Source: a virus (lineage: Duplodnaviria > Heunggongvirae > Uroviricota > Caudoviricetes). From it: a DNA stretch of 28,687 nucleotides. Positions 5,412 to 26,656 of this stretch are shown piece after piece. How positions within the stretch are numbered: position 1 is the first letter of the stretch; every line of letters starts with the position of its first letter. The stretch lies in IMG/VR virus record IMGVR_UViG_2861079508_000005. The stretch is one strand, 5' to 3'. Below the pieces are notes generated by a model. That model did not search any database, was not told the DNA's origin, and was given only the letters and a program-made list of their open reading frames with translations. The translations under genes and the position numbers were made by a program.

Positions 5412-6602
5412 TTAATTGCTGTTAACCGAGGTGACCAGATTTGCCAGGTATTTATCGGTAATACGCTGGCGCAGGGTCAGGTTTTCGAGTGGAGGCACCG
5501 GGGTATAGTCGTAGTCGATATACAGTTTTCCGGCCTTAAGGGTTTCCGCATCGTTGGATTCTTCGCTGAACCAGCAGGTCGCATCCACGATATAGCCGTT
5601 TGTTTTCAGCTCACGGAATTTGGCATTGATGCCGTCAACGATGTCACGAATCAGCGTTGCGGTGATGGGCTTGTCCACCGCCCACATGTGCGCCTCAGCC
5701 ATCGTGTCGGCCAGCACCTGCGCGGTACGGGTGTAGTTTTCAAAGAGGAACAGCGGGTCATCAGAGCAGGTACGGTTACCCCAGAATCGGAAACCGTCAC
5801 GGCGAATCAGCGTAGTGACGCCTGACTCGTTAAGCAGGTCAGCATCGGTGCCGGACTCCTGCAAATCCCAGAATACAGAGGCGCTGATGCCGGTAACACC
5901 GTTCACCCCGACATTGGACAGCGTTTTATGCCAGCCCTGCTCCTGGTCGATTTTAGCGCGCAGGCCCAGCGCACGGGCGGTGGCATACGCGGTGGCGGTG
6001 GTACTGGCGACCGTATCCCATGCGAGGAAATCCGGCCAGATGACCATCAGCTCACGCTGGCTGAAATTCTGGCGGTAGGCTTTCACCTCGGAAATGGTTT
6101 TACAGCCCCATGCGCTGATATACCCGAAAGCGCGCAGCTTCTGACAGACTGATGCCAGTGCAACCGCCACCTCTTTGGTGTCCAGTCCCGGCACACCGAG
6201 AATACGCGGTTTAACACCGGTAACCGACTCCGCCGCCAGCAGGGCTTTTAGTCCGGTGTACTGACCGTTTTCGTCGGTGGTGCCGATGATATTGGAAACG
6301 GTCTGCGCGAGTTTCGTTTCCTCGTCATCACCGGTGCCGTCTTCCACGCGCACGACAACGGTGACCGGTTTTGACTGGTCAGCGATGGCCTGCAACGATG
6401 CCGCCAGCGTGCCTTTTTTACCGGCCTTTGCAATTGCGCTCTGCACATTGGTAATCAGCACAGGTTTATTGAGGGGGAAGGTTTCCGCATCCGCATCGCT
6501 GGCCGTGCAGACCATGCCGACAATGGCAGTGGATACGGTGGAAATGACGCGGGTGCCGTCGTTAATCTCCAGCACTTGCACGCCGTGATGATAGTCACTC
6601 AT
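5412..6602 (-). CDS. FI: contractile tail sheath protein gpFI
   Basis: 396 aa ORF; position and length match P2 FI. Confidence 0.85.
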   Translation of the reverse strand: MSDYHHGVQVLEINDGTRVISTVSTAIVGMVCTASDADAETFPLNKPVLITNVQSAIAKAGKKGTLAASLQAIADQSKPVTVVVRVEDGTGDDEETKLAQTVSNIIGTTDENGQYTGLKALLAAESVTGVKPRILGVPGLDTKEVAVALASVCQKLRAFGYISAWGCKTISEVKAYRQNFSQRELMVIWPDFLAWDTVASTTATAYATARALGLRAKIDQEQGWHKTLSNVGVNGVTGISASVFWDLQESGTDADLLNESGVTTLIRRDGFRFWGNRTCSDDPLFLFENYTRTAQVLADTMAEAHMWAVDKPITATLIRDIVDGINAKFRELKTNGYIVDATCWFSEESNDAETLKAGKLYIDYDYTPVPPLENLTLRQRITDKYLANLVTSVNSN

Positions 6603-6661
6603 CCGTTTAACTCCGTGGTTAATGGGTGAGTGATATTTTCAGTTGTGCCGGAGATGTCAGG

Positions 6662-7261
6662 CTATTTGTCCCGGTTGGCTAAGGGATGACACAATTTATT
6701 CTTTGTCGCTGATGAGGGGAATTTTTTATAGAGCGTGGACAGGCCAATATCAAAAATCAGCGCCACGCGTTGACGTGATTCACCCGCAGCCAGCAACCGT
6801 CCTGCCTGTTCCCACTCACTCGCGGTGAGCTTCGGACGTCTGCCACCAATACGACCTTTAGCTCTGGCCGCTTCCAGTCCGGCGCGTGTCCGCTCGACAA
6901 TGAGTTCTCGTTCCATTTCAGCCAGGGCACCCATCACATGAAAGAAAAAACGCCCCATCGGCGTGCTGGTATCAATAGCATCCGTCAGGCTGCGAAAATT
7001 AACGCCGCGTTCGCGCAGTTCCTCAACCAGAATGATCAGATGCCGCATACTACGCCCCAGCCTGTCCAGCTTCCAGACCACCAGTGTATCCCCCTCCGAT
7101 AATGTCCTGAGCAGTTTTTTCAGTCCCGGTCGGTCGGACTTAGTGCCGCTGATTTTATCCTCAAAAATCAGCTCACATCCTGCGCACTCCAGCGCGTTAC
7201 GCTGCAATTCCGTGTTCTGGTCATTTGTTGACACGCGTACATAGCCAATAAGCATGAGCAT
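6662..7261 (-). CDS. serine-type DNA invertase (Hin/Gin/Cin/Pin family)
   Basis: N-terminus LIGYVRVSTNDQNTELQRNAL with catalytic Ser, plus DRLGRS, GRFFFHVMGALAEMERELIVERT and a C-terminal HTH, all closely resembling Hin/Gin; true start probably ATG at 7255. Confidence 0.85.
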   Translation of the reverse strand: MLMLIGYVRVSTNDQNTELQRNALECAGCELIFEDKISGTKSDRPGLKKLLRTLSEGDTLVVWKLDRLGRSMRHLIILVEELRERGVNFRSLTDAIDTSTPMGRFFFHVMGALAEMERELIVERTRAGLEAARAKGRIGGRRPKLTASEWEQAGRLLAAGESRQRVALIFDIGLSTLYKKFPSSATKNKLCHPLANRDK

Positions 7262-7282
7262 CCCCCTGAATAAAAACCGGAG

Positions 7283-7789
7283 ATGATGCCAGTTGCCCGT
7301 TATCTCTGCATTTTCATAAACGTTGGTTTGGGAGAAGGTTCGGCATTACCCGTTGGTGTGCCTGTTCCGTGGCCTTCAGCCACACCGCCTACTGGCTGGC
7401 TGAAATGCAACGGTGCGGCTTTTTCTGCTGAAGAATACCCGGAACTGGCAAAGGTTTATCCGACAAATAAATTGCCTGATTTACGCGGTGAATTTATTCG
7501 TGGCTGGGATGACGGACGTGGAGTGGATGCCGGGCGACAATTATTATCTTCACAAGGGGATGCAATAAGAAATATTGAGGGATTCGCAGATGGCGGGATC
7601 GGTATGTCTTTTGATGCAATCAGAGGGGCTTTTTACGATGCAGGAACACGATCAGCGAGAATGCCGAATAACACAACTACTATAGACAAAACCGATGACC
7701 TTGGATTCGACGCCTCTCGTGTCGTGCCAACAGCTAATGAAAACCGTCCACGTAACATCGCCTTTAATTATATTGTGAGGGCTGCATAA
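7283..7789 (+). CDS. silent alternative tail-fibre C-terminal variable segment (no own start; expressed only after inversion)
   Basis: Contains PVPWPSATPPTGWLKCNGAAFSAEEYPELAKVYP...LPDLRGEFIRGWDDGRGVD, a phage tail-fibre tip (tail collar type) motif; the frame runs through the crossover site; functional part about 7325-7789. Confidence 0.65.
   Translation: MMPVARYLCIFINVGLGEGSALPVGVPVPWPSATPPTGWLKCNGAAFSAEEYPELAKVYPTNKLPDLRGEFIRGWDDGRGVDAGRQLLSSQGDAIRNIEGFADGGIGMSFDAIRGAFYDAGTRSARMPNNTTTIDKTDDLGFDASRVVPTANENRPRNIAFNYIVRAA
7311..7336. repeat. invertase crossover site, left (hix/gix-like, inverted relative to 9142-9167)
   Basis: Reverse complement reads TTCTCCCAAACC-AA-CGTTTATGAAAA; 15 nt identical to the right site; resembles hixL TTCTTGAAAACCAAGGTTTTTGATAA (from memory). 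Confidence 0.6.
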
Positions 7790-8382
7790 TGAAACCTTTT
7801 TTTGATGAAAATGGGCTGGCTACAGTACCGGGTAATATGCGTTGTTTTTATTATGAGGCAGTTACGTATGAATATACTGGCTGGTCTGATGAATATATTA
7901 ATACTGGCGTAAGTATGCCCGCCTGTTCCACTGGTATTGACCCGGGCGAATGCATTCCGGGGAAAGTGGCAGTATTTACGGGTAAGGGATGGAGCCATGA
8001 AGAAGACCACCGCAATGAGACTGTTTACTCAATCGAAAATGGCGCAGCTGTTACAGTGGATTATATCGGTGCCATCAAAGACGGTTATGTCACACTTTCA
8101 CCGTTAACGCCATACGATAAATGGGATGGTGAGAAATGGGTGACGGATACTGAGGCACAGCATAGTGCCGCAGTAGACGCGGCAGAAGCACAGCGCCAGT
8201 CGCTGATTGATGCAGCAATGGCTTCCATTAGTCTGATTCAGCTGAAATTACGGGCCGGACGGAAGTTGACGCAGGCAGAAACAACCAGACTTAACGCTGT
8301 GCTGGATTACATTGACGCGGTGACGGCAACAGATACCAGCACCGCGCCGGATGTCATCTGGCCTGAACTGCCGGAGGCGTAG
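7789..8382 (+). CDS. alternative tail fibre assembly protein (chaperone for the silent fibre tip)
   Basis: 197 aa ORF immediately after the silent fibre tip; C-terminus ...DTSTAPDVIWPELPEA parallels the gpG C-terminus ...DTSSAPDIEWPTPP; Mu U/U'-like arrangement. Confidence 0.65.
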   Translation: MKPFFDENGLATVPGNMRCFYYEAVTYEYTGWSDEYINTGVSMPACSTGIDPGECIPGKVAVFTGKGWSHEEDHRNETVYSIENGAAVTVDYIGAIKDGYVTLSPLTPYDKWDGEKWVTDTEAQHSAAVDAAEAQRQSLIDAAMASISLIQLKLRAGRKLTQAETTRLNAVLDYIDAVTATDTSTAPDVIWPELPEA

Positions 8383-8794
8383 GCCATTCAATATCTGGTG
8401 CACTGGAGGTATCAACCAGCTCCAGTGCATCCAGATAATCCAGCCACAAATTATATTGCGCCAGTTCCTCACCTTTCAGGCGACCAATCGCCGCTTTACC
8501 AAGCCATTGCTTTCTGTTTATGTATTCGTTGATCTGATTAATCAATTGCTGCTTTTCCAATTCGGCTGCGGCAATTTGTTCCTCATGAGTTGGCGGTGGA
8601 ATATCAATCCATGCAGGCATTCCGTCGATGACACCTCTGTATTTTCCTTCTGGTGCTTCCTTCATAAATTCGGCGGCAACAGTGTCGTCAATTTCGATTC
8701 CATCATCGGGCCATTCGCCGGATTCCTGATAAGCGATTTTAAGCTCCACAGGGAAAAACGCATTTTTATCGGCGCTGAAAATATATTTCTGCAT
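8354..8794 (-). CDS. G: tail fibre assembly protein gpG
   Basis: 146 aa ORF directly downstream of H; conserved C-terminal motif shared with the ORF at 7789-8382. Confidence 0.75.
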   Translation of the reverse strand: MQKYIFSADKNAFFPVELKIAYQESGEWPDDGIEIDDTVAAEFMKEAPEGKYRGVIDGMPAWIDIPPPTHEEQIAAAELEKQQLINQINEYINRKQWLGKAAIGRLKGEELAQYNLWLDYLDALELVDTSSAPDIEWPTPPAVQAR

Positions 8795-8796
8795 TT

Positions 8797-9981
8797 CTAC
8801 CGTCCTATCGAAATATAACTGAATCTGTATTGCTGTGAGATATCACTGGTTGCCACACGCCACGCTGAATTACTGATATGTTCAAAATTTACAGACAAAA
8901 CCTGCGGGGCAGGATTCGACGGGTCTGACTGAACGGCATCAGACATAACACTGACTGAAACCATCGGCTGATTAGGGAATGGTATAGGGAAGTGTCCACT
9001 GATAAAGCGGGTCGAGTTTCCTGAAAAAGTGCCAAACTGAACAATATATCCACCTGGTAGCCTGAACCATCCCGAACCAGAAGCGAATGCTCCCATATCC
9101 GGTATCTGATTATCTCCTGTGCCCACATCCCTTTTCGCCGCTTCTCCCAAACCAAGGTATGCGAGAAGACCGGCAACATCCTTCCCACTCAAATGAGTCA
9201 GCGTCTCATCCAGTGGCTGCTTACCTGACAGCGCATTGTTAATGGTGGTGCTGAATTTCGGGTCATTGTTAATGGCTGCGGCAATTTCTTTCAGTGTATC
9301 CAGCGTGGCAGGCGCACCGTTAATCAGAGCGGTAATAGCGGCCTGTACAAACGCAGTGGTCGCAATCCGCGTGGTGTTATTTCCTGCGGCAGGCGTCGGC
9401 GCTTTTGGTTCTCCGGTAAATGTCGGATTATGTTTCTGTGCATACTGGGTATGAGGATCCTGTGCGGCAATGTGGTTTCTCATCTGGTCATCCACATACA
9501 GCTTTAATTCCAGGACTTCATCATCCACGTATTTACGGGTCGCCAGTACCACCGACGGGTCGATTTTCAGCGTGATGGCTTCGGTATTCGTGACAACCAG
9601 AATCATGCGGATAGTCTGGGTACGACCGCTGCCTTCCTGCAACTGCGGTTTGTACGTTTCCGGGCAGTTCGCCACCGCAATGAGTACGCCTTCATCATCA
9701 TAAAGCCCAATCTCACGGATCCAGAATCCGCCCTCGTTCTCAGGGATGATTTGCTCCGCAATAATCTGGCTCTGGTTGTTCGGGTCAACACTCAGAAGAT
9801 TCAGCGGCGCGATGCGTTTCTGGTTAATCAGTTTTGTCTGTGCCGGGTCTGGTGTCGGCAAGACACCATTCGCATCACCAACGGCCATTTGCGTCAGATT
9901 CAGCTTACTGCCGAGCATCGTCGCGTTAGCCAGCCGTGCTGCGCCCTGATTAGTCAGAATGGCGTAGTATTTCACTGTCAT
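8797..9981 (-). CDS. H: tail fibre protein gpH (constant N-terminal part plus currently expressed variable tip)
   Basis: N-terminal region (...AVGD...GGFW.RE.GLYDD.G.LIAVAN..E.YKP.L.EGSGR.Q..RM) matches the conserved P2 H baseplate-attachment domain; 394 aa; the crossover site lies at codons about 272-280. Confidence 0.8.
   Translation of the reverse strand: MTVKYYAILTNQGAARLANATMLGSKLNLTQMAVGDANGVLPTPDPAQTKLINQKRIAPLNLLSVDPNNQSQIIAEQIIPENEGGFWIREIGLYDDEGVLIAVANCPETYKPQLQEGSGRTQTIRMILVVTNTEAITLKIDPSVVLATRKYVDDEVLELKLYVDDQMRNHIAAQDPHTQYAQKHNPTFTGEPKAPTPAAGNNTTRIATTAFVQAAITALINGAPATLDTLKEIAAAINNDPKFSTTINNALSGKQPLDETLTHLSGKDVAGLLAYLGLGEAAKRDVGTGDNQIPDMGAFASGSGWFRLPGGYIVQFGTFSGNSTRFISGHFPIPFPNQPMVSVSVMSDAVQSDPSNPAPQVLSVNFEHISNSAWRVATSDISQQYRFSYISIGR
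9142..9167. repeat. invertase crossover site, right (hix/gix-like)
   Basis: TTCTCCCAAACC-AA-GGTATGCGAGAA inside H; encodes LLAYLGLGE in the H frame. Confidence 0.6.
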
Positions 9982-10589
9982 GCGTTTACTCTCAGGTTAT
10001 CAATTAAATGAATGGCCGAGGCCGGGAAATAATCCCCTCCGACAATAATGGCCTCCGGGGTGTAGGGATAAACCGTCAGGGCGTCGCCGTGATAGCATCC
10101 CGCACCGGCAAAAATGTTGCCGGTTGTACTTAAACTGATAGCCAGTCCCGTCAGATGGCGGCTTGCCGGTTTTGCATCAGCAACGAGGCGCTCCAGCTCC
10201 TGATACATTTCCTCGGTAATACCCTGCTCAAGCACGCCGACAACGATACGGAACGTCCCCGGCTCCTCGTTGAGCTGCCACCACTCCCTCACCTCAATCA
10301 GATAGCCGAGTGGCTCCACCACACGGCGAATCGCACCAATAGTGCCCTTATGGCAGTGAATGAAATACGCATCGCGGATAACAGCGCGTTTTGTCGCTTC
10401 CGGCCACTTATCATCCCAGCGGTCAACCGAAAATGACCACGCCAGCCACGGCAGCAGATTTGCCGGACAGGTATCCGGGTTCCACAGCTCACGAATACTG
10501 ACCGGCGTTTTTTCAATTTCCGCACAGGCTTTTGCGGCGGCAACTTCAAGCAGTGATGAGCCGGTCGGCAGCAGTCGCGAATCACTCAT
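9978..10589 (-). CDS. I: baseplate assembly protein gpI
   Basis: 203 aa ORF between J and H with overlapping stop/start; P2 order J-I-H. Confidence 0.7.
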   Translation of the reverse strand: MSDSRLLPTGSSLLEVAAAKACAEIEKTPVSIRELWNPDTCPANLLPWLAWSFSVDRWDDKWPEATKRAVIRDAYFIHCHKGTIGAIRRVVEPLGYLIEVREWWQLNEEPGTFRIVVGVLEQGITEEMYQELERLVADAKPASRHLTGLAISLSTTGNIFAGAGCYHGDALTVYPYTPEAIIVGGDYFPASAIHLIDNLRVNA

Positions 10590-11490
10590 CCGAGCCTCCG
10601 GTCACGACGCGGTATTCGGTACAGAAAGACGCCTGCGTACTGTTGAGCACGATGTCGGCCAGTGGTGCAGCCAGTTCGACACGCTGCACACCTTCCACAT
10701 GCAAAGCGGCATAAATGGCAGACAGACGGATGTCACGCCCCAGCCGGTGCTGTGCCGTGATATACGCTTCCAGTTTTTTCACGGCGGCAGCGCGGATGGG
10801 TTCGCTTTCGGGACCAGGGTAAAGGTAAAGCGTGGCGTTTATCTGGTATTCAACGATGGCGGCAGACTGCACGGTCACGCGGTCGGCCACCGGCCTGACG
10901 TCCTCGCCATTCAGGGCGTTACGCACCACAGCCAGCAGGTCTTCGGATGCGACACCGTTATTTTCACGTGACAGTACGGAGATGGTGACGCAGGCCGGAG
11001 ACGGACTGGTGACAGAGATATCCGCGACACGCCCGTCGGCACTGCGACCATGATACTGATAGGCTCCCACCGACCCGGCGACGCTTAAGCCCTCAAACGC
11101 CTGCTGAATACGCAGACGATAATCGGTGTCAGATTCCATCACTGCCGGTGTCGGCGGGATAGTCGAATCATCTGCCGGAGTGATAATCAGGCGCGTGGTG
11201 TTGTAATTGGCACCAATCACATCAAGGTCATTACCGGCGGCACAGGCCAGCATCACCGCCCGTGCGGCCTCATTCACACGCTGACGCCAGATAAGCTCAC
11301 GATAAGCATTTTCCTCCAGCAGTTTGACGAGAGGCTCGGATTCCAGCGTCAGGGTACGGGCGACCGCCTCCTGCTGGTCTTCCGGGTAAAGGGAAATCAG
11401 TGTCGCCTTGCGTTCGGCGAGAATGGTTTCAAAGTCCAGCTCCTCGACCACATCCGGTGCGGGTAGCTGGTTCAGGTCGATAATCGGCAT
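10582..11490 (-). CDS. J: baseplate wedge protein gpJ
   Basis: 302 aa ORF; position W-J-I; length matches P2 J. Confidence 0.75.
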   Translation of the reverse strand: MPIIDLNQLPAPDVVEELDFETILAERKATLISLYPEDQQEAVARTLTLESEPLVKLLEENAYRELIWRQRVNEAARAVMLACAAGNDLDVIGANYNTTRLIITPADDSTIPPTPAVMESDTDYRLRIQQAFEGLSVAGSVGAYQYHGRSADGRVADISVTSPSPACVTISVLSRENNGVASEDLLAVVRNALNGEDVRPVADRVTVQSAAIVEYQINATLYLYPGPESEPIRAAAVKKLEAYITAQHRLGRDIRLSAIYAALHVEGVQRVELAAPLADIVLNSTQASFCTEYRVVTGGSDE

Positions 11491-22193: not shown

Positions 22194-22243
22194 ACACAAC
22201 ATAGAATGTATGTCTAGAAACAACGACATACTATATGTTGTGT
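22194..22243 (+). other. long imperfect hairpin followed by a T-tract (possible operator or sRNA/terminator structure)
   Basis: ACACAACATA pairs perfectly with TATGTTGTGT, plus an inner 7-bp stem GTATGTC/GACATAC, a 10-nt apical loop, then TTTTT at 22244-22248. Confidence 0.4.
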
Positions 22244-22309
22244 TTTTCCGGCTCTCTGTTCGGTGATATGCCAAATCACTTTGCGTTTAAACAGAGCATT
22301 ATTTCAGGG

Positions 22310-22324
22310 CAAGACTTCGCTCAA
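22310..22324 (+). repeat. 15-bp direct repeat copy 1 (CAAGACTTCGCTCAA)
   Basis: Identical 15-mer recurs at 22574-22588; the two copies flank the small ORF and terminator. Confidence 0.6.
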
Positions 22325-22387
22325 AAGTCATTCCACCTAACAAGCGCATATACCGGTGGAAGTTGCCCTCTACTTACAGGAGGCAAT

Positions 22388-22501
22388 ATGAAGAAATGCT
22401 ATTACTGCATTCTCGTTCTGGCCCTCTTTGGCTATCCAAACGGTAGTCCGAGTGGTTTGTCAGTAAACGTCAGTAATATCAATGTCAGCATTATGCTTTA
22501 A
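22388..22501 (+). CDS. hypothetical small hydrophobic protein (37 aa), candidate cargo gene
   Basis: AGGAGG 4 nt upstream of ATG; MKKCYYCILVLALFGYPNGSPSGLSVNVSNINVSIML; terminator immediately downstream; no homology recognised. Confidence 0.35.
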   Translation: MKKCYYCILVLALFGYPNGSPSGLSVNVSNINVSIML

Positions 22502-26155: not shown

Positions 26156-26656
26156 TTAATGCAGATATTGCTCTGGTTTTACCGACGTCAGAATTGTCGG
26201 TGCATACTCAAACAGACTGAATAATTCACGTAATGCACGGAATAAAGCATCACGCCAGTAACATGATTCTTCATTAATTCGCCAGTATGGCTGGTTAAAT
26301 TCTTTTTCTGTCAGTCGTGCGTGCATAAATAAAGTGCGACGCTGACTGACTGTTAAAAAACTAATATATGCATACTCACTTGCGCCAACCTGACGGCGTT
26401 TTGAGAATGCCCCACGCAATTCATCAATTGCACATACCAGTCGTTCACGTTCGACGTCGTTCATTTCTTCAAAACGCATCGTTGCGTGACGCTGTTTTAA
26501 CTGAGCATGGAAGCAAACCGTTAACCGTTCGCGCTCCATCATCTGATTATAATAATCACATGTATCCTGCCAGCGAGGAACGGCAAGATGCTTACCAATT
26601 ATCCGGCGCATAGCTGCTGGCTGTTTTTCAACGAGATTGAGCGTCATCACTGTCAT
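26156..26656 (-). CDS. B: replication protein gpB (helicase loader)
   Basis: 166 aa ORF; position cox-orf78-B; length matches P2 B. Confidence 0.7.
   Translation of the reverse strand: MTVMTLNLVEKQPAAMRRIIGKHLAVPRWQDTCDYYNQMMERERLTVCFHAQLKQRHATMRFEEMNDVERERLVCAIDELRGAFSKRRQVGASEYAYISFLTVSQRRTLFMHARLTEKEFNQPYWRINEESCYWRDALFRALRELFSLFEYAPTILTSVKPEQYLH

Follow-up and report, generated by a model that had tools for sequence, protein, structure and literature searches.

An invertible tail-fibre segment that very probably switches the host range of a P2-like Escherichia coli prophage

The closest described relatives of the locus reported here are the G segment of phage Mu, the C segment of phage P1, the P segment of the cryptic prophage e14 and the P2-like prophages of EPEC, and the switch described below is of this already known kind. 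Active inversion has been described in e14 and in P2-like EPEC prophages (PMC4272514, PMC12529663), and for the latter Goldberg et al. 2014 found coexisting orientations by sequencing and PCR (PMC4272514). Escherichia phage pro483 and other P2-like phages and prophages that encode a DNA invertase are related to our locus; among them, the P2-like prophages of EPEC E2348/69 have been shown to phase-vary. The locus described here has two sites, whereas three sites and four variants occur in one of the EPEC prophages. In Mu (with the invertase Gin) and P1 (with Cin), as in the present case, the crossover lies inside the fibre gene (Sc/Sv), there are two convergent Sv-U cassettes, and the sites have a 12-2-12 layout.

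We analysed a stretch of 28,687 nucleotides (hereafter the window), which we identify from its sequence as a P2-like (Peduovirus-type) prophage of E. coli. Its best phage matches are Peduovirus pro483 and P2, and its Pfam matches include Tail_P2_I, Baseplate_J, sheath, tape measure, GPA, Cox and integrase. The fibre gene is surrounded by proteins of P2 type in the P2-type late gene order, as expected of a P2-like (Peduoviridae) prophage. The P2-type tail, head, replication and integration genes are complete within the window, which stops inside the integrase ORF. Rfam and tRNA scans of the window gave no matches. The features of the switch are collected in Table 1.

Table 1. Features of the invertible locus and its surroundings, in window coordinates.
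Feature	Position	Strand	Details
Serine DNA invertase gene	6662-7255	-	197 aa from ATG 7255; ORF open from 7261
Candidate Fis-dependent recombinational enhancer, within invertase coding sequence	7161-7237	-	Coding nt 19-95
Conserved blocks of the candidate enhancer	7218-7234 and 7161-7185	-	
Candidate 15-bp Fis cores (inferred placement)	7219-7233; 7171-7185		TGTCAACAAATGACC; GCGCAGGATGTGAGC
Left, invertase-proximal 26-bp crossover site	7311-7336		+ strand TTTTCATAAACG TT GGTTTGGGAGAA
Left site parts	7323-7324 (central TT)		Outer half TTTTCATAAACG, inner half GGTTTGGGAGAA
Invertible segment (in silico inversion)	7325-9153		1829 bp between central dinucleotides
Alternative variable C-terminus, tail Collar domain	7325-7789	+	154 aa; Pfam PF07484; presumably silent in this orientation
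Tail-fibre assembly chaperone of alternative cassette	7789-8382	+	197 aa; Pfam Caudo_TAP, E 1.6e-27
Tail-fibre assembly chaperone of current form	8354-8794	-	146 aa; Pfam Caudo_TAP, E 3.4e-34
Variable C-terminus now fused to H, gp53-like C-terminal domain	8797-9153	-	118 aa; Pfam PF21882
ORF of tail-fibre gene H, present orientation	8797-9981	-	
Right 26-bp crossover site, inside tail-fibre gene H	9142-9167		+ strand TTCTCCCAAACC AA GGTATGCGAGAA
Right site parts	9154-9155 (central AA)		Inner half TTCTCCCAAACC, outer half GGTATGCGAGAA
Constant part of tail-fibre gene H	9154-9981	-	Codons 1-276; in both fibre forms

The segment holds two convergent cassettes, each consisting of a fibre C-terminus followed by its own assembly chaperone. 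The gp53-like tip and its Caudo_TAP chaperone lie on the minus strand, the Collar tip and its Caudo_TAP chaperone on the plus strand, and the 3' ends of the two chaperone genes overlap by 29 nt. The constant part of H carries the Pfam Phage_tail_fib N-terminal domain; joined to the gp53-like tip, it makes up the present-orientation fibre of 394 aa. The initial annotation of this DNA had predicted that recombination at the central AA would join H residues 1 to about 276 in frame to an alternative tip, in a fibre of about 430 aa. Inverting 7324-9154 in silico, as it had proposed, produced a single ORF of exactly 430 aa with neither a stop nor a frameshift, and the same ORF resulted with the ends set at 7325-9153 or 7323-9155. 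The fusion consists of H residues 1-276, shared with the 394-aa fibre, followed by GLGEGSALPVGVPVPW...RAA, and the junction continues GLGEGSALPVG.... The locus thereby combines a crossover within the fibre gene, a constant N-terminus and in-frame alternative C-termini, like the Mu G, P1 C and e14 P segments.

The two crossover sites are inverted repeats of each other that agree at 21 of 26 positions. The longest exact run common to both measures 15 nt (CTTCTCCCAAACCAA; the reverse complement of 7323-7337 equals 9141-9155), and the conserved half-site and central dinucleotide lie on the inner side, facing the segment, in each. The initial annotation had described this arrangement, together with outer half-sites that differ as in hix/gix-like sites, and both descriptions hold: the outer halves are CGTTTATGAAAA and GGTATGCGAGAA, and in cix and pix, too, the outer halves are unlike. 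Both sites have a 12-2-12 layout with the same central AA/TT, and alignment with gix, cix and pix sequences from database records showed that their half-sites fit all three. The left site is identical at 26 of 26 positions to the pinE-side pix site of e14 and to the left site of phage pro483; the right site is identical to the H-side site of pro483. When the window was scanned with a weight matrix derived solely from the half-sites of other systems, the right and left sites scored 30.3 and 28.4 bits, against 7.0 bits for the runner-up position in 28.7 kb and a background over the window with a mean of -30.7 (sd 9.0). This site architecture is far beyond chance.

The repeat alone was rejected as a statistical argument. 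The window also contains exact inverted repeats that have nothing to do with the sites, one of 17 nt (5996/9538) and one of 15 nt (10072/12923), and for this reason a 15-nt exact inverted repeat by itself is not exceptional here. These two repeats are without site-like features. Further or cryptic crossover sites were found in the window neither at up to three mismatches nor by the matrix scan. A shufflon-like or multiple-inversion system, such as Min of p15B, the three-site EPEC P2-like prophage or the R64 shufflon, was considered and rejected, since there are just two sites.

Both sites double as coding sequence. Read on the minus strand in the H frame, the right site encodes LLAYLGLGE, and the left site, read in the plus-strand ORF 7283-7789, encodes NVGLGEG, in agreement with the LLAYLGLGE and VGLGEG readings first proposed; the inner half corresponds to G-L-G-E. 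Throughout the family, the inner half-site is read in frame as GLGE or, more broadly, GLxE. The motif is a family-wide consequence of an in-frame inner half-site and not a peculiarity of the locus.

The gene adjoining the left site encodes, as predicted from its sequence, a serine invertase of the Pin/Gin/Cin type. Its transcription runs away from the segment, and the gene starts 68 nt from the left-site centre. The protein has Pfam Resolvase (E 2.3e-52) and HTH_7 domains, with the active-site Ser9 within a YVRVST motif. Over about 185 aa it is 86% identical to PinE of e14 and 78% identical to both Gin and Cin, and its identity to the pro483 enzyme reaches 97.5%. In Hin, Fis is contacted by Q151, R154 and L155 and the enhancer DNA by the basic residues 47, 48 and 51, all of which are reported to be specific to Fis/enhancer-dependent invertases (PMC3798978). 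Like Gin, Cin and PinE, the present invertase carries Q150, R153 and L154 as well as K46, K47 and R50. Domain layout, close sequence relationship and Fis-/enhancer-contact residues are those of the Din family (Hin/Gin/Cin/Pin), as are the two inverted 26-bp sites with imperfect 12-bp half-sites and the same 2-bp core. A scan for a sigma-70 promoter of the invertase between the left site and the gene start yielded none at the scan threshold. Over the same interval, the only match was a terminator-like hairpin at 7275-7294 on the minus strand.

A search of the 5' coding region of the invertase for a Fis-dependent recombinational enhancer, suggested by the initial annotation, uncovered two conserved blocks. 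In a profile computed over 34 distinct invertase genes, the synonymous pair difference is about 0.31 at coding nt 19-48 and 67-96 versus 0.60 elsewhere, and it is back at background between the two dips. This bipartite conserved interval coincides with the cin enhancer that the P1 record annotates at coding nt 19-90. The 5' coding region of the invertase thus holds a candidate Fis enhancer, its two Fis sites being recognised at the level of sequence conservation. The Fis cores were placed from the conservation blocks and a 48-bp spacing, which is the spacing of the Fis sites in Hin; placement by the consensus G-N13-C was ambiguous and was dropped. The candidate core centres are accordingly 48 bp apart, and the proximal one is 97.5 bp from the centre of the left site. 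The Hin enhancer is reported to lie 100 bp from its site (PMC4513852), a similar distance.

Comparison with public genomes revealed both orientations in nature. The 3401-nt sequence flipped in silico aligns without a break to E. coli GF31 at 99.8%, and six further genomes match it at 96-99%. In GF31 the junctions agree exactly with the prediction, and PGAP annotates a tail protein of 430 aa. The frame-keeping, invertase-driven flip that the initial annotation had envisaged is thus matched by a Pin-family gene next to the segment and by flipped forms in other genomes. Public contigs that carry the predicted 430-aa protein, residue for residue, number 193; the 394-aa form occurs on 40. Among the matches listed, genomes with at least 80% query coverage divide into 19 and 28 between the two orientations, and near-identical prophages (96-99.9%) occur in both. 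The E. coli F163 genome harbours two copies of the region. Only the 1829-bp segment sets them apart, being in one copy the exact reverse complement of the other: the flanks, of 3725 and 3847 nt, show 0 mismatches, and outside the segment the copies are identical across the 9.4 kb compared. Opposite orientations in otherwise identical copies point to very recent flipping. In addition, eight draft contigs of relatives start inside the invertase-proximal site or only a few nt away from it, which would be expected if the reads held both orientations; these contig ends add support to the genome comparison.

Could the sites and the invertase instead be inherited remnants of a switch that no longer flips, with the present orientation fixed? 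The promoter scan is in line with this idea, as no promoter-like site for the invertase was detected at its threshold. However, the invertase ORF is intact and retains the catalytic Ser9 together with every Fis-contact and helix-B residue, nothing else in the window comes near the scores of the two sites, and the two orientations occur in near-identical prophages and even within the single F163 genome. We consider a fossil switch highly improbable. Orientation polymorphism, as read from these genomes, shows that flips have happened without naming the invertase that catalysed them, and E. coli often has several Pin-family enzymes acting in trans (PMC12529663). The comparative data moreover place the exchange point only within the 15-nt shared core. 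Both points would also suit general (RecA-type) homologous recombination between short inverted repeats. Yet it is established that efficient homologous recombination in E. coli needs far more than a 15-nt repeat, and the repeats match invertase sites exactly in architecture and adjoin an invertase. In e14, whose segment is homologous, Pin enzymes are required for inversion (PMC12529663). As an incidental observation, no rearrangement appears at the longer 17-nt repeat (5996/9538) among the matches listed. The chance that general recombination accounts for the orientations is practically negligible, and the switch is to be considered, on these sequences, real and almost certainly active.

A different question is what the flip is selected for. 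In e14, inversion is reported to create StfE2, which joins the stfE leader to the gp53-like C-terminus of stfP and lowers T2 adsorption (PMC12529663, 2025). By analogy, the main selected function here might be a free protein from the promoter-distal ORF (ATG 7283) that blocks adsorption of other phages. This ORF now consists of the leader and the Collar cassette; in the flipped state it would consist of the leader and the gp53-like domain, an analogue of StfE2, and the flip would toggle exclusion instead of, or besides, virion host range. The window does have the same short leader ORF (MMPVARYLCIFINV-GLGE) with a GGAG just 5' of the ATG pair 7283/7286, and a flip would put the gp53-like domain onto this leader. 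The leader ORF is, however, not conserved, a stop occurring within eight codons upstream of the site in about half of the relatives, and four of the five leader substitutions between e14 and the window alter the amino acid. Unlike e14, the prophage has complete P2-type tail, head, replication and integration genes, so that a virion role is available to the fibre. Defence as the main function is very unlikely. It is also unlikely, if slightly less so, that the promoter-distal cassette is translated from ATG 7283/7286 as a free receptor-binding domain that masks host receptors in the manner of e14 StfE2, in which case one flip would change both the host range of the virion and the phages excluded.

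For the host-range switch, we propose the following mechanism. Dimers of the Pin-family invertase would bind both 26-bp sites, and host Fis, bound to the two-site enhancer in the first ~95 nt of the invertase coding sequence, about 100 bp from the left site, would activate them. The invertase would then make 2-bp staggered cuts at the central AA/TT, and rotation of one half-site pair by 180 degrees followed by religation would leave 7325-9153 inverted; both Fis dependence and this cleavage chemistry are proposed by homology. Because the sites lie within coding sequence and the inner half-site reads G-L-G-E in both cassettes, H residues 1-276 are joined in frame to either the gp53-like tip (394 aa, present) or the Collar tip (430 aa, flipped). 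In each orientation, the chaperone gene following the fibre is the one belonging to that tip. With one of two tips on H and a matching chaperone, a lysogen population would release two kinds of virions that differ in receptor specificity. The change in host range is suggested by the lack of relationship between the two tip domains and by the precedents of Mu and P1 (PMC12529663). The sequence offers no argument against the proposed mechanism.

The system is ordinary, of textbook type and already described, and it adds no new biology. It does provide a worked example of a recombination site that doubles as coding sequence, the inner half-site being G-L-G-E, and of one gene that yields two proteins. 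Annotation pipelines give the promoter-distal cassette an entry of its own as a 'phage tail protein' and treat the two fibre forms as distinct proteins, and draft assemblies break at such sites. Awareness of the switch prevents such errors, and it is also relevant when host ranges are predicted for P2-like phages or for tailocins derived from them by engineering.

When comparing the locus with Hin/hix of Salmonella, the likeness lies in the invertase subclass, for which a Fis/enhancer requirement may be assumed here by analogy, in the two 26-bp sites with central AA, and in an enhancer about 100 bp from the nearest site and within the invertase gene (PMC4513852, PMC3798978). Hin, however, flips a promoter together with its own gene and so switches flagellin transcription in flagellar phase variation, whereas here the invertase lies outside the segment and the flip swaps coding sequence within one ORF. 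Mu and P1 are closer. Beyond the 78% identity of their invertases to ours, they share an enhancer in the 5' coding region of the invertase (annotated in P1) and an inner half-site read in frame as G-L-x-E (GLQE in Mu, GLRE in P1). In Mu, too, the invertase gene is oriented away from the segment and begins about 67 nt from the closest site. By contrast, the segments of both phages are larger (3 kb in Mu, 4.2 kb in P1) and sit in other phage backbones. The Mu sites have GA at their centre and are alike in both halves (34-bp repeats), and P1 cin points towards the segment, with cixL overlapping its 3' end.

The layout and both crossover sites are the same in pro483, which is 97.5% identical over 9093-10600; at 67% coverage, both cassettes differ from pro483 in their receptor-binding ends and the chaperones in their N-terminal parts. 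The P segment of e14 has the same gene order (J-like, I-like, fibre, chaperone, inverted chaperone, inverted fibre tip, invertase) and a similar length (1797 bp as reported versus 1829 bp). It also has the same inner half and central AA at both sites and the same GLGE reading. At 82% identity, the invertase and the start of the Collar cassette resemble their e14 counterparts, as do the central chaperone ends at 91%. The gp53-like tip and parts of both chaperones are, however, unrelated at the DNA level, and the H-side outer half-site is GGTATGCGAGAA here versus GGTTTTCGAGAG in e14. Moreover, e14 is defective, a remnant whose fibre gene stfP is short (209 aa) and whose stfE is labelled as a pseudogene, whereas the switch described here resides in a P2-like prophage in which the late region is complete and the fibre has 394 or 430 aa. 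The segment is very probably the host-range switch of a P2-like E. coli prophage, with the same construction as the G segment of Mu, the C segment of P1 and the P segment of e14.

The window is a P2-like prophage of E. coli. Positions 6600–10000 are 99.9% identical to E. coli ARS-C301, and among phages Peduovirus pro483 and a P2 isolate match the window best. Pfam hits cover tape measure, sheath, P2 gpI, baseplate J, replication protein A, Cox and integrase, and the P2-type late, replication and integration genes are complete. In the minus-strand direction the genes run J, I, H (the tail-fibre gene), a chaperone, an opposite-strand chaperone, a Collar C-terminus, a serine recombinase and the sheath gene. 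We consider it very likely that Pin-type, Fis/enhancer-activated inversion alternates two fibre tips with their chaperones, and thus the host range of the virion. The invertase would flip the segment, the flip would swap the fibre tip together with its matching chaperone, and the tip swap would alternate the host range.

Features of the invertible region and other elements of the window
Feature	Position	Strand	Description
17-nt exact inverted repeat	5996-6012 / 9538-9554		CGGTGGTACTGGCGACC; sheath gene and constant part of H
Serine recombinase (invertase)	6662-7255	-	Pfam Resolvase + HTH_7
Candidate 15-bp Fis cores	7219-7233 and 7171-7185		centres 48 bp apart
Terminator-like element	7275-7294	-	hairpin + T run, between left site and invertase start codon
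Alternative ORF (cassette)	7283-7789	+	open from ATG pair (7283, 7286), GGAG just before
Left crossover site	7311-7336	+ (reading)	TTTTCATAAACG TT GGTTTGGGAGAA
Fibre C-terminus	7325-7789	+	Collar domain (Pfam)
Second chaperone	7789-8382	+	Caudo_TAP (Pfam)
Shared 3' ends of the convergent chaperone genes	8354-8382		29 nt
Chaperone behind H	8354-8794	-	Caudo_TAP (Pfam)
H	8797-9981	-	394 aa; Phage_tail_fib N-terminal domain + gp53-like C domain (Pfam)
Right crossover site	9142-9167	+ (reading)	TTCTCCCAAACC AA GGTATGCGAGAA
P1 gene S-like stretch	9207-9408		constant part of H
ORF, Q-to-A gap of prophage	22235-22501	+	88 aa, without Pfam match
ORF, early region	26156-26656	-	166 aa, without Pfam match

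The initial annotation had proposed that the two crossover sites share 15 identical nucleotides, with a conserved half-site and the central dinucleotide on the inner side of each and different outer halves. Aligned in the same sense, the sites agree at 21 of 26 positions, the exact common run is the 15-nt CTTCTCCCAAACCAA, and the half-site arrangement can be read directly at both. They also form the top-ranked inverted repeat of the region in a repeat finder (27 nt, 81% complementary). By itself, a 15-nt exact inverted repeat is unremarkable here, since unrelated exact ones of 17 nt (5996/9538) and 15 nt (10072/12923), neither extending into wider similarity, also occur in the window; what makes the pair significant is its architecture. 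In a scan of the 28.7-kb window with a weight matrix derived solely from half-sites of other systems, the two 26-mers scored 30.3 and 28.4 bits, and the next best position reached 7.0 bits (mean -30.7, sd 9.0). The 17-nt repeat brackets the invertase and the invertible segment. Since it has neither extended similarity nor invertase-site features, it is probably due to chance (about 0.02 expected per window).

In the ORF table, LLAYLGLGE of H spans the right site and NVGLGEG of the alternative ORF spans the left site, in agreement with the motifs LLAYLGLGE and VGLGEG first assigned to them. In silico inversion between the central dinucleotides yields one 430-aa ORF, consisting of H residues 1–276 followed by GLGEGSALPVGVPVPW...RAA, just as an in-frame fusion after about residue 276 and a fibre of about 430 aa had been predicted. 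Neither a stop nor a frameshift, either of which would speak against the fusion, is present at the junction, and the prediction therefore stands. The observation and its interpretation were both correct and complete. In the alternative ORF, V-GLGE is preceded by a hydrophobic leader of 13 residues, MMPVARYLCIFIN. The e14 prophage has the same leader ORF, MMPFACYFFIFIN, with 4 residue differences; of the more distant relatives, about half carry a stop there.

Both orientations occur in nature. The flipped 3401-nt sequence was built in silico and searched against complete E. coli genomes, where it was found in one piece in E. coli GF31 (99.8%) and in six more genomes at 96–99%; the window's own orientation has a full-length match in four. 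At a coverage of at least 80%, 19 genomes carry the window's orientation versus 28 with the flipped one. The GF31 junctions, ...TTTTCATAAACGTTGGTTTGGGAGAAgcggcgaaa... and ...ccgaaccTTCTCCCAAACCAAGGTATGCGAGAA..., match the prediction exactly, and PGAP annotates a 430-aa tail protein in this strain. By exact-sequence look-up, 193 public contigs encode the predicted 430-aa fusion without a single residue changed, and 40 encode the 394-aa form. In a scan of draft contigs with one genome per species, eight contigs from eight Enterobacterales species start inside or within 7 nt of the invertase-proximal crossover site. Reads with both orientations would cause an assembly to break at this site, and the contig starts probably represent such breaks; such starts could be used as an inexpensive genome-wide marker of active invertible segments. 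Coexisting orientations have been described in cultures for e14 and the P2-like prophages of EPEC E2348/69 (PMC4272514), and Pin enzymes are needed for e14 inversion (PMC12529663).

It is very unlikely that the switch is a fossil, inactive in the window prophage. Against this speaks E. coli F163 (NZ_OY754349.1), where the region occurs twice, at 1.77 Mb and at 4.64 Mb. Over 9.4 kb the flanks of the two copies have 0 mismatches (3725 and 3847 nt), and their 1829-bp segments are exact reverse complements of each other. Within a single genome, the sister copies thus differ by a perfect inversion; in the assembly they represent either a true lysogenic pair or an assembly duplication. That RecA-mediated exchange changed the orientation is extremely unlikely, as the repeat is not long enough and the sites are those of a recombinase. 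Defence as an added function of the promoter-distal ORF is possible but unlikely. Such a role has been claimed for e14 StfE2, and a 2025 paper assigns phage exclusion to the flipped e14 product; however, the family does not conserve the leader ORF, and the window has complete sets of P2-type late, replication and integration genes.

Activation of the Pin-type inversion by Fis and an enhancer is suggested by the invertase gene itself. In the P1 record, the enhancer of Cin inversion is annotated at coding nt 19–90 of cin. From 34 distinct invertase genes (window, pro483, pinE, gin, cin and Enterobacterales relatives), we aligned the first 135 codons and measured how frequently the codons differ in pairs of sequences that agree in the amino acid. 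This synonymous difference falls from a background of 0.60 to about 0.31 at nt 19–48 and nt 67–96, returns to 0.60–0.66 in between (nt 43–66), and elsewhere in the first 400 nt is never below 0.53. A DNA element in two parts, superimposed on coding sequence, is expected to leave just this pattern. A search for an enhancer in the 5' coding region had been suggested initially, and the two conserved blocks found there, GTRTCAACAAATGACCA (nt 22–38) and GCGCAGGATGTGARCWRATWTTTGA (nt 71–95), give a candidate defined by conservation. The 48-bp spacing of the candidate Fis cores is that of the Hin enhancer. The distance between the proximal core and the left site is 97.5 bp, centre to centre, which matches the 100 bp between hixL and the Hin enhancer (PMC4513852). 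Moreover, Q150, R153, L154 and K46, K47, R50 of the window enzyme provide, at equivalent positions, all residues described as specific to Fis/enhancer-dependent invertases (Hin Q151, R154, L155 and basic 47, 48, 51; PMC3798978).

Relatives in Shigella, Escherichia, Enterobacter, Trabulsiella, Citrobacter, Dryocola, Rosenbergiella and Pantoea all have the inner half-site in the same frame, where it reads GLGE or, less often, GLGN, GLGT, GLGD, GLGS, GLGG or GLTE; in Mu and P1 it reads GLQE and GLRE, respectively. Several site variants, such as TTCCCCCAAACC, TTCGCCTAAACC and CTCTCCCAAACC, differ only at synonymous positions of this frame. The same two cassette types are found repeatedly, joined to different constant parts and in both positions, one with GLGEGSALPVGVPVPW... 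and a Collar domain and the other with GLGEAAKRDVGTG.NQ... and a gp53-like domain. Compared with pro483 and e14, the switch region is a mosaic in which invertase, sites, the initial part of the Collar cassette, the chaperone ends where they converge and the constant part of H are conserved, and the receptor-binding ends and chaperone N-terminal parts are replaced. The e14 genes tfaP and tfaE have the same 29-nt 3' overlap, with the surrounding 400 nt 91% identical but the rest of the chaperone genes different. The crossover site is thus a standard junction at which fibre tips can be exchanged in frame, a property of the family and not special to this locus. The stretch in constant H is a trace of the known exchange of fibre modules among P2, P1 and Mu, with 67–77% DNA identity to b1/b2, repeated elements of the P1 gene S constant part.

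Crossover sites of the window and of known systems, segment-side half first (Mu, P1 and e14 sequences from their records)
Site	Inner half	Core	Outer half
Window left	TTCTCCCAAACC	AA	CGTTTATGAAAA
Window right	TTCTCCCAAACC	AA	GGTATGCGAGAA
e14, pinE side	TTCTCCCAAACC	AA	CGTTTATGAAAA
e14, stfP side	TTCTCCCAAACC	AA	GGTTTTCGAGAG
P1 cixL	TTCTCTTAAACC	AA	GGTTTAGGATTG
P1 cixR	TTCTCTTAAACC	AA	GGTATTGGATAA
Mu gix	TTCCTGTAAACC	GA	GGTTTTGGATAA

The window recombinase shares 97.5% identity with the pro483 invertase, 86% with PinE and 78% with both Gin and Cin. The layout is that of the Mu G segment (S-U / U'-S' - gin) and the e14 P segment (stfP-tfaP / tfaE-stfE - pinE), and in both, as in the window, the invertase gene is directed away from the segment, with its start 67–68 nt from the nearest site's centre. 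The terminator-like hairpin contains a TGGCAT motif that many relatives also have, about 30–35 nt upstream of their invertase start; the hairpin might halt late-operon read-through or form part of the invertase control region. In the alignment with gix, cix and pix that the initial annotation had proposed, both half-sites and the core of the left site match the pinE side of e14, and the left site is therefore identical to this pix site. The two window sites are each identical to their pro483 counterpart, and the e14 repeats published in 2025, TTGGTTTGGGAGAAGG, have the same core (PMC12529663). The switch in the window is an already known kind of system, down to the identical recombination site in E. 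coli K-12.
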